A stretch of 36,207 bases of DNA, taken from positions 1-36,207 of IMG/VR virus record IMGVR_UViG_2541047897_000007. One strand, 5' to 3'. The first letter of the stretch is position 1. Every line of letters begins with the position of its first letter. Shown here piece by piece: positions 6,279 to 13,728 of the stretch. The translations under genes and the position numbers were made by a program. The stretch comes from a virus (Duplodnaviria > Heunggongvirae > Uroviricota > Caudoviricetes). The notes beneath the pieces are model-generated. The model saw only the letters and a list, made by a program, of their open reading frames with translations. It made no database searches and was not told where the DNA came from.

Positions 6279-9101
6279 ATGACGGCAGAGTACATCAGGG
6301 ACTGGCAACAACCGCGCCACGCAGTGGGGCGTGAAGGAACGGGGATCCCCGCTCCTGAATCCGCGCTTTCCTCCTGGCTGGATGCCTACCGGGTAGAGAA
6401 CGAGCGCCGCCAGGAAATGGCTGATGCGGCGTTCTCCGCCACGCCGCTGGGCAACCTGATTAATAAAAGCCTGGACGCACAGGAAAAACAGGACAAAACC
6501 ATCACACTGGCAGGAGACGCCAGAAAACAGGCACGCGGCGCAGTGGATGAAGCCATGACCTCGCTGCGCCTGCTGCCGTCCTATCTGCGCGATCCGCTTA
6601 TTCGCCACCTCTCCTTCCTGCGCAAAAAACAGGAAGCCGATCGCCGGAAAGGCAAAAAGAGCTGGCAGGCGGAACGCTATGCACGCGGAACCCTGCGCAA
6701 AATATTCGAACGTCTGGACCGCACCGATCACCGCTGGCTGACACCGGGTTATCGCTCCCTTGCCGGACGCGAACGCCTGGACGATTTGCTTTACCTGCCG
6801 CAGCTCAACAAACACCAGATACAGACGCTGGCCACCATGACGGCGGCGATGTTCAGCAGCACCTTCGAAAAACTCTGCGATGGCTTTGGCGCGACTGATG
6901 GCGAACTGACCATGGATGTAACGCTGAAGGCGTATCAGATGCTGGCCCGCATGGCGTTACACCTGCACGCCATGCCTCCACATTATGACGCACTGACAAC
7001 AGACAAAGACCGGAGGAACGAACCGGACACAGAGCTGCTGCCGGGCGCAATCCTTCGCCTGACCTGTGCGGAATGGTGGAAACGCAAACTGTGGCTGTTA
7101 CGTTGCGAGTGGAGAGAAGAACAACTCCGCGCCGCCTGTCTGGTTTCCAGAAAAACATCGCCCTATCTGAGCCAGGACGCGTTAAGCGAGTTTCGCGCAC
7201 AGCGCGAGAAAACACGCGATTTCCTGAAAAGTTTCATGCTGGAAAACGAAGACGGGTTCACGATTGATCTCGAGACAGTGTATTACGCGGGAGTAAGTAA
7301 CCCGGTTCACCGTAAGGCAGAAATGATGGCCACCATGAAGGGACTGGAACTTCTGGCCGAAGCCCGTGGCGACAGAGCGGTGTTTCTGACTGTCACCTGC
7401 CCGTCAAAATACCACGCAACAACGGAGAACGGTCATCCGAACCCCAAATGGAACGGGGCCACCATGCGCGACTCCAGCGATTACCTGGTTAACACGTTTT
7501 TTGCGGCGGTCCGCAAAAAACTGAACCGCGACGGCCTGCGCTGGTATGGCATCCGCACGGTGGAGCCTCACCATGACGGCACCGTGCACTGGCATATGAT
7601 GGTCTTTGCTCATCCGGAAGAAATCGACAGCATCGTGGCCATCACCCGCGATATTGCCATTCAGGAAGACCGCCACGAGCTGGGCAATGATATTACTCCG
7701 CGCTTTAAAGTGGAGTATGTCGACGGCTCAAAAGGCACACCAACCAGCTATATCGCGACCTACATCGGGAAAAACCTGGACAGCCGCGCCGTGGATGGCA
7801 TCGACCCGAAAACGGGCAAACCACGCGTTGACCACGAAACCGGAAAATCAATGGCCGAGAGCGTGGAGCGCGCCATCGGTTGGGCACGCCTTCACCGGGT
7901 CCGCCAGTTCCAGTTCTTTGGCATCCCCTCCCGTCAGGTGTGGCGTGAACTCCGCCGCCTTGCCAGCCAGATGGCACGCAACCCGGAAGGCCCGCAACGG
8001 CTGAAGGATGACGCAATGGATGCGGTACTCGCTGCCGCTGATGCCGGATGTTTTGCCACCTACATAGAGAAACAGGGCGGCGTACTTGTTCCACGCAAAG
8101 ACTACCTGATTCGCACCGCCTACGACCTCGCCGATGAGCTGAACGATTACGGCGAACAGAGTGTACAGATTTACGGGATCTGGTCACCACTCATCGGGGA
8201 ATCCTCCCGTGTGTGCACGCACCCGGATAACTGGAAGCTGGTAAGACGTAAACCGGAACAGGAAGGCAGCGCCCACGAAAATGGTTTTGACCTTCAGGGC
8301 GGCCCTGCCGCCCCTTGGACTCGTGGCAATAACTGTCCCCGTGTACAGGAAACGGACAACAACGGGACAGAACAGCCGGAAGAACGGCCAGCACCGTGGC
8401 CGCAGCTCCCTGACGGCGTTGAAGTGAACGAATGGATGCGCTCACTGAAACGGCACGAACGCCGGGCGCTGATGCGTTCGCTTCGTGACAAACAGGCAAA
8501 AAACAGCAGTGATGAAATGCAGAGCTGGACACAGAGCCGCAAACAGCAGCGGCCTTTGCCTGATAACCACGAATTACTCGCTAAAGAATGGCGGGAGTCT
8601 GCTGAATCTCTCGGCCTGCATATCGGTGAACAACAGATGCAGCACCTGTTACGGGGCGGCAGTCTGTACGTTGACGGCAGCATCATTGCACCGCAGGGAT
8701 TTGAAATTGTACGCAAACCGGATACCCGCCCGGACAGCCGAATCACGCAGCTCTGGCAGCGCCTGAGCCGTAATCACGGCGTAAGCAGCACGGAGATCCG
8801 CCATAACCCGGTCGCCAGCTATCTGGCGCAACTGGGGGCATCAGACCCTGAAGCCGCCGCACGCCTGGCATCCACACTTCAGCAGGACCAGAACACCATG
8901 AAAACACCCGTTACCGTGCTTTCTGACATGCTGCGCGCCATCCGCGACACAGAGCACGCACAGAGAATCAGTGAAACCACTGAACGCGCCCGCCGCAAAG
9001 CAGACCTGCTGCGGGGTGGCCTGACCATTGGAAACAAAAAACAGACAGAAACGGGATTCACAAATCCCGTAAATGAGCAAAAAACGCGCCGCGATATATG
9101 A
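6279..9101 (+). CDS. A: replication initiation endonuclease (P2 gpA-like, rolling-circle HUH nuclease)
   Basis: 940-aa ORF; HUH-type motif VHWHMMVFAH and tyrosine pair in SYIATYIGK; position after the early operon as in P2. Confidence 0.9.
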   Translation: MTAEYIRDWQQPRHAVGREGTGIPAPESALSSWLDAYRVENERRQEMADAAFSATPLGNLINKSLDAQEKQDKTITLAGDARKQARGAVDEAMTSLRLLPSYLRDPLIRHLSFLRKKQEADRRKGKKSWQAERYARGTLRKIFERLDRTDHRWLTPGYRSLAGRERLDDLLYLPQLNKHQIQTLATMTAAMFSSTFEKLCDGFGATDGELTMDVTLKAYQMLARMALHLHAMPPHYDALTTDKDRRNEPDTELLPGAILRLTCAEWWKRKLWLLRCEWREEQLRAACLVSRKTSPYLSQDALSEFRAQREKTRDFLKSFMLENEDGFTIDLETVYYAGVSNPVHRKAEMMATMKGLELLAEARGDRAVFLTVTCPSKYHATTENGHPNPKWNGATMRDSSDYLVNTFFAAVRKKLNRDGLRWYGIRTVEPHHDGTVHWHMMVFAHPEEIDSIVAITRDIAIQEDRHELGNDITPRFKVEYVDGSKGTPTSYIATYIGKNLDSRAVDGIDPKTGKPRVDHETGKSMAESVERAIGWARLHRVRQFQFFGIPSRQVWRELRRLASQMARNPEGPQRLKDDAMDAVLAAADAGCFATYIEKQGGVLVPRKDYLIRTAYDLADELNDYGEQSVQIYGIWSPLIGESSRVCTHPDNWKLVRRKPEQEGSAHENGFDLQGGPAAPWTRGNNCPRVQETDNNGTEQPEERPAPWPQLPDGVEVNEWMRSLKRHERRALMRSLRDKQAKNSSDEMQSWTQSRKQQRPLPDNHELLAKEWRESAESLGLHIGEQQMQHLLRGGSLYVDGSIIAPQGFEIVRKPDTRPDSRITQLWQRLSRNHGVSSTEIRHNPVASYLAQLGASDPEAAARLASTLQQDQNTMKTPVTVLSDMLRAIRDTEHAQRISETTERARRKADLLRGGLTIGNKKQTETGFTNPVNEQKTRRDI

Positions 9102-9146
9102 AGCGCGCATAAAACAGGCAAAAACGGGATTTCAGAATCCCGTAAA
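9049..9146. promoter_or_regulatory. two 25-bp dyad repeats, candidate centromere/operator for the downstream parMR-like operon
   Basis: aaacgggattcacaaatcccgtaaa (9049..9073) and aaacgggatttcagaatcccgtaaa (9122..9146), each an 8-bp-arm inverted repeat, spaced 73 bp; the first lies inside the 3' end of gene A. Confidence 0.4.
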
Positions 9147-9177
9147 CGATTAATTAATCAACATAAGGAAAAGCGAC

Positions 9178-10137
9178 ATGAAAATTTGTATCGATGACGG
9201 CTCCACCAACATCAAGCTGGCATGGACTGAGAACGGCGAACGCCGCAACGCCATCAGCCCAAACAGCTTCAAGTCGGAATGGTCTGCGCCGTTCGGTGGC
9301 ACGCAGCCCGCGAACTACATGCTTGATGGCGTGCGCTATGGTTTTGATCCGGTCAGCGATCGCTTTGTCCAGACGACCGACACGCAATACCAGTACAGCG
9401 ATGTGAATGTCATTGCCATTCATCACGCGCTGGTCAAATCAGGCATCACACCACAGGAAGTGGATGTGGTTGTCACCCTGCCACTGAGCGAATATTTCGA
9501 CACAAACGCACAGCCGGTCATGGCCAACATCAACCGCAAAAAAGCAAACGTCATGCGCCCGGTGGCGTACCAGAACGGAAAAGCATTCACTATCCGTAAC
9601 GTACGGGTTATGCCTGAATCCATTCCGGCTGGTTTTAAAGCACTGGCTGACATGAGTCCGTTTGAATCCCTGCTGATTGTGGATTTAGGCGGAACCACGC
9701 TGGATGTGGCAAAGGTTCAGGGACAACTGGCAGGTATCAGCCAGGTGTTTTGCGATCCACACGTAGGCGTTTCCCTGATGGCCGATGCCGTACTGTCGGT
9801 GATGGCCACTAACGGTATGCGTACCAGTCACCACATCGCCAATACCATTATCGAACATCGCCATGATGAAGCTTGGCTGCGCCAGCACATCCACAATGAC
9901 GCGCATTACGACAGCCTGATAGCGGTTATTCGTGAAAAGGAAGAAACACTGAAACAACGCGTGATCCGCGCGCTGGCGGGTTTTTCGGGTTACGGGCGGG
10001 TGATGGTTGTCGGTGGCGGGGCGGAGATTGTGGCACCCGCTATCCGCGAAGCCTGCGGAGTTAATGCGACTTTCATCGCGGACGGGGTGCCACAGTTTGC
10101 TCTGGTTAATGGGCTGTACGCAATGGACAAGGAGTAA
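9178..10137 (+). CDS. parM: ParM/StbA-like actin-type segregation ATPase
   Basis: 319-aa ORF; actin-fold motifs IDDGSTNIKL, IVDLGGTTLD and VVGGGAE; close match along its length to plasmid R1 ParM as recalled from memory. Confidence 0.85.
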   Translation: MKICIDDGSTNIKLAWTENGERRNAISPNSFKSEWSAPFGGTQPANYMLDGVRYGFDPVSDRFVQTTDTQYQYSDVNVIAIHHALVKSGITPQEVDVVVTLPLSEYFDTNAQPVMANINRKKANVMRPVAYQNGKAFTIRNVRVMPESIPAGFKALADMSPFESLLIVDLGGTTLDVAKVQGQLAGISQVFCDPHVGVSLMADAVLSVMATNGMRTSHHIANTIIEHRHDEAWLRQHIHNDAHYDSLIAVIREKEETLKQRVIRALAGFSGYGRVMVVGGGAEIVAPAIREACGVNATFIADGVPQFALVNGLYAMDKE

Positions 10138-10141
10138 ACCA

Positions 10142-10453
10142 ATGACGACACCAACCAGACGGATAAGTTTCTATCTGAAGCCCGCCGCCGTCAAGAACGA
10201 AGGCGAAGCATGCGCCTGGCTGGACAGCCTTACACCAGAAGCCCGCAAAAGTGGTCAACGTGTGGCTTTTCTGGCCGGACTGGCACTTATGAAAATTAAT
10301 CCGGCAGAGGCTTACCGACTGGCTGCATGGGCTGACGATGAAGCGTTATCCCTGACACAAACCAGGACAGAACGCCCCGTGTCACAGCCAGCACCAACCG
10401 CACAGATAACCAGTCAGATGGCCGGAAATATCCGGGCGTTATTTCCCGAATAA
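10142..10453 (+). CDS. parR: ParR-like centromere-binding adaptor (candidate)
   Basis: 103-aa product from the ATG at 10142 with AGGAG RBS; RRISFYLKP...AGLAL...LFPE resembles R1 ParR as recalled from memory; position directly after the parM-like gene. Confidence 0.55.
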   Translation: MTTPTRRISFYLKPAAVKNEGEACAWLDSLTPEARKSGQRVAFLAGLALMKINPAEAYRLAAWADDEALSLTQTRTERPVSQPAPTAQITSQMAGNIRALFPE

Positions 10454-10516
10454 CACAACATCAGGGCGCATCCGCCCTGATGACTTTAACCCGGGAACAT
10501 AAACAAGGGGGACACA

Positions 10517-10849
10517 ATGCAACACATTGACAGAGAAAAAGCGCAGCGACTGATTGAGCGGATGGAAGCGCTGGCGCAAGAAGAAAATGTCAACATCCAA
10601 AAAATAGCTGAATGTGGCCAGATAGTTCTTCGTCGTGAAAAAGACCTCAAACAACTGATGTCTGGCAAAACCAGCAAAACATGGGATTCAGGCGAGGAAA
10701 TGATTTATTGCAGCTTCTGCAATAAATCCCAGTACGAAGTCACAAAGGTGATTGCTGGACCGTCTGTTTACATCTGCAATGAGTGCGTGGATTTGTGCAA
10801 TGAAATTATCAGGAGAGAAGTGGCAGACAAAAAGGGAAAAAACACATGA
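10517..10849 (+). CDS. stand-alone ClpX-type C4 zinc-finger (ZBD) domain protein
   Basis: 110-aa ORF with strong RBS; C-terminal [38 protein letters not shown] is near-identical in pattern to the E. coli ClpX N-terminal zinc-binding domain, including the spacing of all four Cys; no AAA+ module follows. Confidence 0.75.
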
Positions 10850-11160
10850 ACAGAAAACAAAAACAAGAGTTGAAATACTTTTTACGTAAAGAAATTGCCA
10901 GGCTTGAAGATGCAGAATCACGATCATCAGAAATTCCGTTCGGAATGGATATCAACGACGCCCGTATGCTCCAGGCATACCGTATAGCTCAGGCTGCACT
11001 ACAGGCAAAACCGTCAGATGGACTGGTTAGAGCAGTACGTTTCTATGAACTGGTAAAGCGTGAGAATCCGCCAACCGAAACCGGAGCATGGAAAGACGCT
11101 GTTGACTGGGTGCTCAGAGAAGCTTGCCAGACTGTAAACATTGGTATCAAAGGAGAGTGA
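10846..11160 (+). CDS. hypothetical protein
   Basis: 104-aa ORF, start overlaps the upstream stop. Confidence 0.55.
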
Positions 11161-11162
11161 GA

Positions 11163-11654
11163 GTGCAGATTTCACCGGTTACTCTTCGTGTTGCGAAGGC
11201 ATTTATATCCAGACATCACCGACACAATAAACCCCCGGTGGGGCATAAATTCAGCATTGGTCTGAGAAATGATGCCGGAGAATTGATAGGTGTGGCGACA
11301 GCCGGTCGACCTGTTGCACGACATTTGGACGATGGATTAACGCTTGAAGTAAATCGCACATGTACCACAGGAGAACGCAACGCTAACAGCGCGCTTTATG
11401 GTGCTGTCTGGCGGGCAGCAAAAGCTATGGGTTATCAACGTTGTATTACGTACACCCGGGCAGATGAATCAGGAGCATCTCTTCGCGCAGCTGGTTTTGT
11501 TCGTGTGAAAGAGCTTCCTCCAAGAAAAAGCTGGGCGGAATCAAGCGTCGCCCTGCGGAGTAAACGCGATCCGGTCGGAAACGGTGGTGTTCCTCGTGTG
11601 CTCTGGGAAATCAGGAGAATGAGTACCACTGGCATTCGCATCAAAGGAGAGTGA
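11163..11654 (+). CDS. hypothetical protein (weak GNAT-like resemblance)
   Basis: GTG start at 11163 with AGGAG 6 nt upstream preferred over the overlapping ATG at 11124; 163 aa. Confidence 0.45.
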   Translation: MQISPVTLRVAKAFISRHHRHNKPPVGHKFSIGLRNDAGELIGVATAGRPVARHLDDGLTLEVNRTCTTGERNANSALYGAVWRAAKAMGYQRCITYTRADESGASLRAAGFVRVKELPPRKSWAESSVALRSKRDPVGNGGVPRVLWEIRRMSTTGIRIKGE

Positions 11655-11655
11655 T

Positions 11656-11919
11656 ATGGCAACTTTAACAAAAAAAGAACGGGCATGGTTGAATGAATTA
11701 CAGGACGTTCTTGATCGCTGCCCATCACCGAAAAAAATTGGTTTTTACACCATTGGCGATAAAAGCATTTACCTGTATGACCTGCGCCGCATGGATGAAA
11801 TCATGGAGGCTCTTGATAATCGTTCGTCAATGGATTGGTGTGTTGCTGTTCATGATATGAATGCAGGGTTTGATGAAAAGATTTTGTTCCCCTCATCAGT
11901 TGAAAGCACAGCAGGATAA
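11656..11919 (+). CDS. hypothetical protein
   Basis: 87-aa ORF starting 2 nt after the upstream stop, preceded by the same aaaggagagtga junction seen at 11149..11160. Confidence 0.55.
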   Translation: MATLTKKERAWLNELQDVLDRCPSPKKIGFYTIGDKSIYLYDLRRMDEIMEALDNRSSMDWCVAVHDMNAGFDEKILFPSSVESTAG

Positions 11920-11929
11920 GGACTAACAC

Positions 11930-12190
11930 ATGACAACTTTCACCGACAAAGAACTGATTAAAGAAATCAAAGAGCGCATAGGCAGCCTGGACGTTCGAGA
12001 CAATATTGAGCGCCGTGCTTATGAAATTGCACTGGCATCACTGGAAGCAGAGCCAGTAGCATGGATGCATGTAAATAACGGCATCGGAATACCAGCAATA
12101 ACAAGGAGTAAAGAGGTTGCAGAGAGTTGGTTATCAAAAGGCTGGTATGTCCAACCCTTGCATCTAGCCCAGCCTGCATCAAAGCTATAG
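11930..12190 (+). CDS. hypothetical protein
   Basis: 86-aa ORF with RBS aggact; last gene of the island. Confidence 0.55.
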   Translation: MTTFTDKELIKEIKERIGSLDVRDNIERRAYEIALASLEAEPVAWMHVNNGIGIPAITRSKEVAESWLSKGWYVQPLHLAQPASKL

Positions 12191-12681: not shown

Positions 12682-13728
12682 TCAGGATGTGGGCTGGATG
12701 TCTAACAGTGCGTAAGGGTTAAAGCGGATCACCTCTTCGCCAAGCCAGTCATTGATGTGCTTCATGGCCTCCATGACGGGCATCAGCTCGTTAATTGCGT
12801 AAACCCGCGCGGCCTTCTCCACATCACCAAACGCACTTTTTTCACCCGGCATCGCCCCCATCAGTTGCGGCGGAACGCGGTGCGCAGCCAGCACATCATC
12901 ACGGGATGCCGCCTTAACATTCATGAACTCATCCTTTGCGGTGATCTGCTGGAACGGCAAAATTTGCACCCCCTCTTTGCCCCCGTTGGGCGCATGAATG
13001 AGCACGTTTTTAAACGCACCACCACCACGCGCACCCTGTAGCGTTTCTTTCAGGGAGTCCATGCTTTCGCGGTTTACCTGCGCTGCACCGATGTAGATGA
13101 TGCACCCGGCGTGGGATCCGTTGTCGTAGTACAGTTTTCTGAACATGTCCGCCGAATGAGACAGGCTGGCCGAGAGTAATGCGCCGAGATATTCCGGCAT
13201 GCCGTAGATTTCCTGATTAATATCCGGATTCATCAGGTGACACACTTTGCCTGGGCGAAACTGAAACGCATCCTTGCCATCCTGCACATACCACCATGAT
13301 TCAAGATCGCTTCCGCGTCGCATGTATTTCGCCAGTGCGTGCCGTAATTTAAGCGGTTCGCCGAGCATATTGCTCCGAAGCTCAAGGAATGCGTTACCGA
13401 ACACAAACCAGTCCAGCGCCAGCGCCGAGAAATCCTGCCGGGAAAGCAGCGGGTGCGGGATGTAGCAACCGAGTAATACATTGCGCTTAAAGTAAAGCGC
13501 AGACTGATGCCAGGACGTTTGCCGGGCAGCTCTTGCCAGACCGTACCAGTCCACCGGGGTTTCATACCACCGCCCGTTATCAGCACAGTACATATTGTCC
13601 AGCAGATCATGCCCGGTCAGGCGATAAGGACCATCAAATGTGAATGCACTGAGCGATGATTCTTTCCTGAGCGCATCAGCGAGATCAATGCGTGAACTCA
13701 TGCGCACTTTTTTATTTTTTCTGCTCAT
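12682..13728 (-). CDS. Q: portal protein (P2 gpQ-like)
   Basis: 348-aa ORF; size and position match P2 Q, paired with the terminase ATPase gene directly upstream. Confidence 0.85.
   Translation of the reverse strand: MSRKNKKVRMSSRIDLADALRKESSLSAFTFDGPYRLTGHDLLDNMYCADNGRWYETPVDWYGLARAARQTSWHQSALYFKRNVLLGCYIPHPLLSRQDFSALALDWFVFGNAFLELRSNMLGEPLKLRHALAKYMRRGSDLESWWYVQDGKDAFQFRPGKVCHLMNPDINQEIYGMPEYLGALLSASLSHSADMFRKLYYDNGSHAGCIIYIGAAQVNRESMDSLKETLQGARGGGAFKNVLIHAPNGGKEGVQILPFQQITAKDEFMNVKAASRDDVLAAHRVPPQLMGAMPGEKSAFGDVEKAARVYAINELMPVMEAMKHINDWLGEEVIRFNPYALLDIQPTS

Follow-up and report, generated by a model that had tools for sequence, protein, structure and literature searches.

What use could a plasmid segregation motor be to an integrating phage? 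This question is raised by the stretch of DNA analysed here (36,207 bp, hereafter the window), which is a complete prophage of the P2 family and the P88 type (genus Xuanwuvirus) from Escherichia coli, and in which the replication gene A is followed by parM, parR, a variable cargo stretch and the portal gene. Around the end of gene A lie two copies of a short dyad, for which an earlier, sequence-only reading had proposed the role of a parC-like centromere or of an operator. The comparisons described below favor the first of these roles: the region of about 9036-9149, i.e., the two dyads together with their A-rich leaders and the phased spacer between them, is likely to be the parC-like, ParR-binding centromere of a compact ParMRC cassette. 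This proposal draws its support from the position of the dyads directly upstream of parM, where parC sits in type II loci, from their conservation at the DNA level, from their fixed 73-bp phasing and from their linkage to parMR.

Two phased dyads in front of a type II partition pair

The motif ACGGGATT-N4-AATCCCGT occurs exactly at 9051-9070 and at 9124-9143. Its arms are perfect 8-bp inverted repeats whose sequences are the same in both dyads, each dyad spans 20 bp, and the two are separated by 73 bp from start to start, which corresponds to 6.95 turns at 10.5 bp/turn. The two copies, their 8-bp arms and their spacing of about seven turns are as the sequence-only reading had claimed, except that the loop, given there as N5, is N4 (CACA in the first dyad and TCAG in the second). 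A search for the same dyad elsewhere in the genome, which it had recommended, returned only the two known copies and no third one in the whole window, even with up to 3 mismatches tolerated. The first copy indeed lies in the last codons of gene A, dyad 1 falling within the last 17 of them; the stop of gene A (TGA, 9099-9101) lies between the dyads, and from the end of dyad 2 to the ATG of parM (9178) there are 34 nt. Furthermore, the dyads are part of a longer direct repeat, whose two 42-nt copies (9035-9076 and 9108-9149) are 81% identical and consist of a leader CA(A/T)AAAACAG(A/G)CA(G/A)AA, the dyad itself and TAAA(T/C)GA. The region can be described as follows:

9036..9076, plus strand: repeat unit 1, with A-rich leader AAAAAACAGACAGAA, dyad 1 and TAAATGA (42-nt repeat family; edge of the identity with viral contig L098)
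9051..9070, unstranded: dyad 1, ACGGGATT-CACA-AATCCCGT, proposed site for a pair of ParR dimers (exact match)
9071..9123, plus strand: 53-bp inter-dyad spacer, with the gene A stop, a GC-rich inverted repeat around GATATAT, a variable patch at 9090-9098 and phased A-tracts (haplotype table; A-tract periodicity)
9108..9149, plus strand: repeat unit 2, with A-rich leader CATAAAACAGGCAAAA, dyad 2 and TAAACGA (42-nt repeat; conservation in a Hafnia relative)
9124..9143, unstranded: dyad 2, ACGGGATT-TCAG-AATCCCGT, second proposed ParR site (exact match; variant data)

Such an arrangement is not expected by chance. The half-site ACGGGATT is found five times in the window, against 0.86 expected, a number that was reached in none of 100 shuffles, and four of the five occurrences are the dyad arms. 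Perfect hairpins with 8-bp arms are themselves frequent in the window (20, against a mean of 4 per shuffle in 300 dinucleotide shuffles), and two hairpins with a common arm appeared in none of the 300 dinucleotide-preserving shuffles. Moreover, the A-tracts over 9030-9170 are phased at about 10.5 bp and are also in phase with the dyads; at 10.5 bp the spectral power reaches 0.97 (99th percentile of all 141-nt windows of the sequence, 0.38), which places the region in the top 0.06% (shuffle p of about 0.007). Each dyad is preceded, at a distance of exactly 10 bp, by a weaker sub-site containing AAAAC, and the spacer holds one more; speculatively, these may be additional ParR sites of low affinity.

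Within each dyad the half-sites are inverted and 12 bp apart from start to start. Dimers of ribbon-helix-helix proteins, as known from the parC of pSK41 and from the operators of Arc/Mnt and omega, recognize short direct or inverted half-sites, and a 20-bp unit accommodates a dimer of dimers. The dyads of the window, with half-sites about one turn apart, presumably have this ribbon-helix-helix operator geometry. The ParR of pSK41 belongs to another sequence family and uses tandem repeats.

The genes around the dyads, all co-oriented, are these:

6279..9101, plus strand: gene A, replication endonuclease, 940 residues (PF05840, E=1.7e-130)
9165..9169, plus strand: Shine-Dalgarno sequence of parM, AAGGA, 8 nt before the ATG (sequence reading; kept in all relatives)
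9178..10137, plus strand: parM, actin-like partition ATPase, 319 residues (PF06406, 5e-81; PF21523, 2e-68)
10142..10453, plus strand: parR, adaptor of the ParR/StbB family, 103 residues (PF10784, 1.9e-25)

The parMR pair begins 76 bp behind gene A, and parR starts 5 nt past the stop of parM. ParM matches the R1 ParM structures of the PDB over residues 2-316 with E=7e-92, and it is at most 53% identical to plasmid ParMs. For ParR, a single-sequence search of the PDB gave noise only and did not reach 2JD3, the ParR of pB171, whereas a profile built from phage and plasmid ParRs matches that protein over its full length (E=1e-14). Along the phage lineage ParM is 94-99% identical; ParR variants, in contrast, are 52-97% identical overall, with a hypervariable linker at residues of about 65-95. 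Two parts of ParR are invariant in the lineage: the N-terminal strand RRISFYLKP with the helices that follow it, and the C-terminal NIRALFPE, which in alignments falls on the N-x-x-x-(L/M)-F-P-D-D termini of the ParRs of plasmids. The invariance of RRISFYLKP, presumed to be the DNA-reading strand, parallels that of the dyad cores. Judged by these matches, parM and parR are a genuine type II partition pair of the R1/pB171 class, and the neighbors that had been called ParM-like and ParR-like deserve their names (PF06406, PF21523, PF10784, and the matches to R1 ParM and 2JD3).

Conservation of the dyads and their linkage to parMR

The ParR homologs brought together for comparison range from 97% to 40% identity. 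The large sample, from locus L035 onward, was mostly picked by the dyad motif itself and serves for spacing and variant counts only. A scan of viral contigs for the dyad gave 119 loci, 76 of them with parM, 3 with gene A only, at a contig end, and 40 unrelated single matches, the last figure being about the chance level for 14 specified bases. Over positions 8900-10500, phage P88, P884B11, Citrobacter phage phiSM and others share 94-98% identity with the window, and the prophage of strain NU14 is 99.7% identical to it over the cassette. A search of 72,556 plasmids for DNA similar to the dyad region returned nothing beyond six P88-like inserts. Among the species-representative genomes there were no intermediates between phage and plasmid ParM in which a co-variation of ParR and site could be followed, the ParMs being either 97-98% or at most 52% identical, with 94% for the Hafnia relative.

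This Hafnia relative, retrieved through ParR and not through the motif, is the most divergent one with the upstream region. Its dyad core bases (GGGATT/AATCCC) are identical to those of the window at 24 of 24 positions, against 80 of 118 other upstream positions and 57% identity at the fourfold sites of parM; chance identity of all the core bases would have a probability of about 1e-4 (0.68^24). In repeat unit 2, the 22 nt AAAACAGGCAAAAACGGGATTT are fully kept. The reading frame of gene A, however, is different: in Hafnia it ends with a TGA in the loop of dyad 1, and the left arm is read in another frame, so that protein coding cannot explain the conservation of the dyads. From this comparison, the dyads appear to be under purifying selection as DNA, independently of the gene A frame.

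The spacing is equally constrained. Of 66 distinct upstream sequences, 61 have the dyads at a distance of 73 bp, 2 at 72 bp and 1 at 74 bp, and the Hafnia relative keeps the 73 bp although its spacer carries an indel. Variation is highest in the two dyad loops and in the patch 9090-9098. This patch, which holds the last gene A codons before the stop, occurs as discrete haplotypes (GCGATAT, ATAAAAC, AAAATAT and GTGAAAT), with fixed GC-rich inverted repeats on both sides.

Inverted repeats may also act as structured RNA, and the variant data bear directly on two explanations of this kind. According to the first of them, the dyads would be two rho-independent terminators of the minus strand, keeping antisense transcripts that arrive from the side of parMR and the cargo out of gene A and the early operon. 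Both hairpins are indeed followed on the minus strand by T-rich tails (ACGGGATTCTGAAATCCCGT TTTTGCCTGTTTTATG and ACGGGATTTGTGAATCCCGT TTCTGTCTGTTTTTTG), both are flagged by a pattern scan, and the A-rich leaders that form these tails belong to the conserved 42-nt repeat. Nevertheless, the stems have only 4 G-C pairs, and changes in them are one-sided and never compensatory in 65 variants, with pairing broken on the minus strand by, for example, A-to-G in pair 1 of dyad 2 (26 variants) or C-to-T in pair 3 (6 variants). Neither identical arms nor an exact 73-bp spacing are expected of independent terminators. Furthermore, the nearest minus-strand gene in the window from which such transcription could come is the portal gene (12682-13728), more than 3.5 kb away, and the genes in between are on the plus strand. 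Termination is consequently a quite improbable role for the dyads.

According to the second, the dyads would work as RNA in the A-parM intercistronic messenger, as hairpins or as a helix between the copies, affecting processing, stability or the translation of parM. The plus strand folds with z = -5.9 relative to shuffles, and in the minimum free energy structure the two copies pair with each other on either side of the gene A stop. Such a score is, however, trivial for two identical palindromes, and the two strands are alike in this respect (near -5.8). No Rfam match was obtained at E<=1, no U-tract follows the dyads on the plus strand, and among the same 65 variants no double change restores pairing at any of the 16 pairs; on the contrary, changes that recur often, such as GGGACT (14 variants) and AATCCCAT (several), put C.A mismatches into the plus-strand stem. 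The Hafnia relative, too, keeps the sequence of the arms rather than their pairing. We hold an RNA function to be very unlikely.

If the dyads are read as DNA, to which partner do they belong? The answer comes mainly from the viral contig L098 (4166-7122), whose gene A (773 residues) is only 31% identical to that of the window and is accompanied by an extra open reading frame of 159 residues (6460-6939). The DNA identity of L098 with the window begins at AAAAAACAGACAG (window position 9036), exactly where repeat unit 1 starts on its left, and extends over the two dyads as far as into parM, neither dyad overlapping a gene in this contig. Of the gene A product of the window, only residues 920-940 are matched there at 100%. 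Because this identity begins at the edge of repeat unit 1, the dyads are to be assigned to a mobile parMR cassette of about 1.45 kb (9036 to about 10490) and not to gene A, and the presence of the cassette behind an unrelated gene A implies that it moves between P2-like backbones. The same alignment indicates that the last 22 codons of gene A in the window (9036-9101) are read-through into cassette DNA. The statement that the cargo had been "recruited with its own cis element" is borne out in this sense, the dyads traveling with parMR.

What does not hold is the view of parMR as variable cargo. In P2-like phages the order gene A, parM, parR is found in every contig that covers the upstream side, while the cargo after parR differs; since the order is the same in all of them, parMR is best described as a fixed module of the phage lineage, with the variable hotspot downstream (3') of parR. 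Sequences with different cargo diverge after about 10490, just past a hairpin:

10459..10482, plus strand: perfect hairpin with 10-bp arms directly 3' of parR, CATCAGGGCG-CATC-CGCCCTGATG, approximate right end of the cassette

This hairpin has no T-run on the plus strand. In Hafnia and in the loci L136 and L005, another hairpin sequence occupies the same place after parR, a hint that the cassette ends on the right in a conserved structure.

Rearranged forms of the cassette also exist. In L008 and L010 (3309-3437), an open reading frame of 42 residues directly after parR holds a fragment of ParM (VDVVITLP) and looks like a recombination scar of two parMR cassettes. L063 (505-3275) is a decayed prophage: gene A is cut short (residues 1-762) and separated from dyad 2 by an insertion of about 2.7 kb, neither dyad 1 nor the spacer is present, and a short duplication interrupts parM.

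The overlap of the dyads with the end of a replication gene, together with the element of GC stem and AT loop in the spacer, could instead point to another binding protein, be it gpA or a replication factor, Cox, C, Ogr or a host regulator, acting on replication or on early-operon control; that ParR is the binder is, after all, our own deduction from sequence. The linkage in L098, where the dyads go with parMR behind a gene A product of 31% identity and do not co-vary with gpA, speaks against this explanation, as does the absence of the dyad elsewhere in the phage genome, unlike the operators of phage-wide regulators. We know of no resemblance between the dyad motif and the sites of P2 C, Cox or Ogr. 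Besides, the homolog of the P2 ori nick site lies 750 bp upstream of the dyads. A binder other than ParR is, all in all, quite unlikely.

8296..8335, plus strand: homolog of the P2 ori nick region, inside gene A (P2 nick annotation, 29892; gpA protein and DNA alignment)

At this place, the window has ggccctgccgccccttggactcgtggcaataactgt where P2 has gcatcgccgcgcctcggagtcctgtcaataactgt, the two sharing gccgc..gga.tc.tg.caataactgt. A role of the dyads as the replication origin itself was considered as well and is ruled out by this nick-site homolog at about 8296-8335.

The remaining alternative is the second half of the sequence-only reading, i.e., that the dyads are mainly an operator through which ParR would autoregulate a parMR promoter as in R1, the centromere function being secondary or lost. 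In R1 the sites do serve as operator and centromere at once (PMC2241845), and hexamers resembling a -35 element occur in the dyad loops (TTCACA and TTCAGA here, TTGAAA in the Hafnia relative). Nevertheless, this half of the proposal lacks its promoter: a scan of 8800-10700 detected no sigma-70-like promoter, the best hexamer pairs scored by hand reach 8/12 with poor -10 elements (AAAAAC, ATTAAT), and the only candidate with balanced elements would place the transcription start within the Shine-Dalgarno sequence of parM. Moreover, the spacer, which is the place of the promoter in plasmid parC loci, is here the most variable part. A promoter-like site was seen at 2465, beside the repressor gene, and fits the early promoter of P2. 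We regard an operator as the main function as highly improbable. Since no promoter is detectable and parMR lies behind gene A in the same orientation, the pair is probably expressed by read-through of the early operon.

The proposed minimal centromere compared with known systems

How would the ParR-binding centromere proposed here work? One ribbon-helix-helix dimer of ParR would occupy each half-site (A/T)ACGGGATT, so that each dyad would carry a pair of dimers, as a dimer of dimers. The 73 bp between the dyads being seven turns on A-tract-phased and presumably intrinsically bent DNA, both complexes would face one side and could join to give a small partition complex of U shape, such as has been described for ParR-parC of R1. 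The ParR tail NIRALFPE would then link this complex to the growing end of the ParM filament, and copies of the phage DNA would be pushed apart. With parMR read through from the early operon after infection or induction, the system would act on free replicating phage circles and not on the prophage.

The 159-bp parC of R1 has a promoter core of 39 bp with five direct 11-bp iterons on either side; it is described as strongly curved and as forming a U-shaped complex with ParR (PMC2241845). The locus of the window resembles it in lying directly upstream of parM, in having repeated sites in two groups with a spacer, on phased and curved DNA (here predicted), and in its gene products, a ParM (E=7e-92) and a ParR of family PF10784. 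It differs in having two inverted dyads (four strong half-sites), a 53-bp spacer and no recognizable promoter, in residing in an integrating phage, and in showing no sequence similarity to any plasmid parC. An arrangement of the R1 type, with about 10 direct iterons of 10-11 bp flanking the par promoter, is therefore not what is found, although it is a trait of R1 and not of all type II loci. The pB171 par1 ParR (StbB, 2JD3), which is reached through the family profile at full length (E=1e-14), is the structurally defined ribbon-helix-helix ParR, which forms a helical array on iterons. The ParR of the window is shorter than the pB171-type proteins (103 against 130-140 residues), lacking about 35 residues between the N-terminal domain and the C-terminal tail.

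Plasmid parMR loci whose ParM is about 50% identical present unrelated, T-rich direct iterons around a good promoter. In at least one of them, L029, a plasmid-like contig of Hafnia paralvei with the same ParR family, an A-tract and a palindrome, AAAAAC-ACATATATGT-AT, lie upstream of parM in units (AAAAACACATATATGTAT) that are 63 bp apart, i.e., whole helical turns. The palindrome is unrelated to the dyads, its copies are more numerous, the core is good and promoter-like, and ParM is 47% identical; these units of A-tract plus palindrome nevertheless imply that dyad-type sites occur in the parMR family. In the P1-like phage-plasmid D6, ParM is 48% identical, a gene of the ParR family comes next and repeats lie upstream, and the record notes a similarity to P88 StbA; D6 is, however, maintained as a plasmid, and its repeats (TCTCAAATTTATCTCA) are direct, in three copies and of unrelated sequence.

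In functional terms, an integrating phage with a ParMRC-like system finds its best precedent in AlpACS of the Corynebacterium glutamicum prophage CGP3, in which an actin-like filament protein and an adaptor that binds alpS near its own operon are needed for efficient replication and transport of the phage DNA (PMC4446434, PMC5539076). The two systems differ in that AlpC is a distant actin-like protein, AlpA is not a member of PF10784, the host is Gram-positive and the sites are unrelated. A search of the literature found no description of a P88 parC, P88 being mentioned only as a possible phage-plasmid. The locus is, then, an uncharacterized member of a well-known partition class, unusual both in its minimal architecture of dyads and in the element that carries it.

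Several observations weigh against a centromere at this place. There are only four strong half-sites, against the two arrays of five 11-bp direct iterons of R1, and four ParR dimers may be too few to cap a ParM filament, unless the AAAAC sub-sites are also filled. No sigma-70 promoter was found, the best candidates staying at 8/12, and on the minus strand either dyad could, by its pattern, pass for an intrinsic terminator. The loci collected without use of the motif number only about 18, and most of these are close relatives. The AlphaFold2 model of the ParR monomer, made from an alignment of 13 sequences, has a mean confidence (predicted local distance difference test, pLDDT) of 50.5 and was not used for a fold search. 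Finally, the cassette is nearly always chromosomal, with 1453 chromosomal and 2 plasmid places in the complete E. coli genomes.

Distribution and possible roles in an integrating phage

Of 5426 complete E. coli genomes, 1307 (24%) contain the cassette, O157:H7 strains among them. Because it is almost always chromosomal, classic plasmid maintenance is unlikely to be its main function. By analogy with AlpACS of CGP3, it is more attractive to suppose that the cassette may act on free phage circles while they replicate, following induction or infection. It has also been proposed that P88 may have both episomal and integrated states (Pfeifer et al., PMC7969092).

A broader picture can be sketched only tentatively, as one that we find possible but doubtful: an actin-based segregation machine with a minimal, promoter-less centromere would be a standard early-operon module of integrating P2-like phages in about a quarter of E. 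coli, and would position or separate replicating circles or serve a facultative episomal state. If this were true, the module would be the E. coli counterpart of AlpACS of CGP3 or of the phage tubulin spindles, and the two dyads would be the smallest natural ParR-loading site known. Among the uses that such a motor could have for its phage are the positioning of replicating genomes, a transient episomal phase, as envisaged for P88 (PMC7969092), and incompatibility against plasmids.

If the dyads are the ParR site, the full set of cis and trans parts of a 1.45-kb ParMRC cassette would be defined, and a centromere of two dyads would be a useful minimal substrate for asking how few ParR dimers are able to capture a ParM filament. 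The practical value is more modest: the annotation of P88-like phages could include parC, and the final 22 codons of gene A could be recognized as cassette read-through.

Two records may be noted that depart from the usual chromosomal setting. A complete P88-like genome with int, cox, A, parM, parR and the structural genes was deposited as a circular E. coli "plasmid" of 34,461 bp (L033; NZ_CP148288.1, 1-34461), which could be an episomal or excised form. In the other (L154; NZ_MK439959.1, 39050-52006), a P88-like segment with the cassette adjoins IS26 in a 228-kb IncC KPC plasmid.

As for the cargo that follows parR in the window (10517-12190), it includes a protein of 110 residues with a ClpX-type zinc finger (PF06689, 2.7e-18), another of 176 residues with a weak match to the Mom family (PF25680, below the cut-off) and several small open reading frames with no family match; relatives carry other genes at this place.

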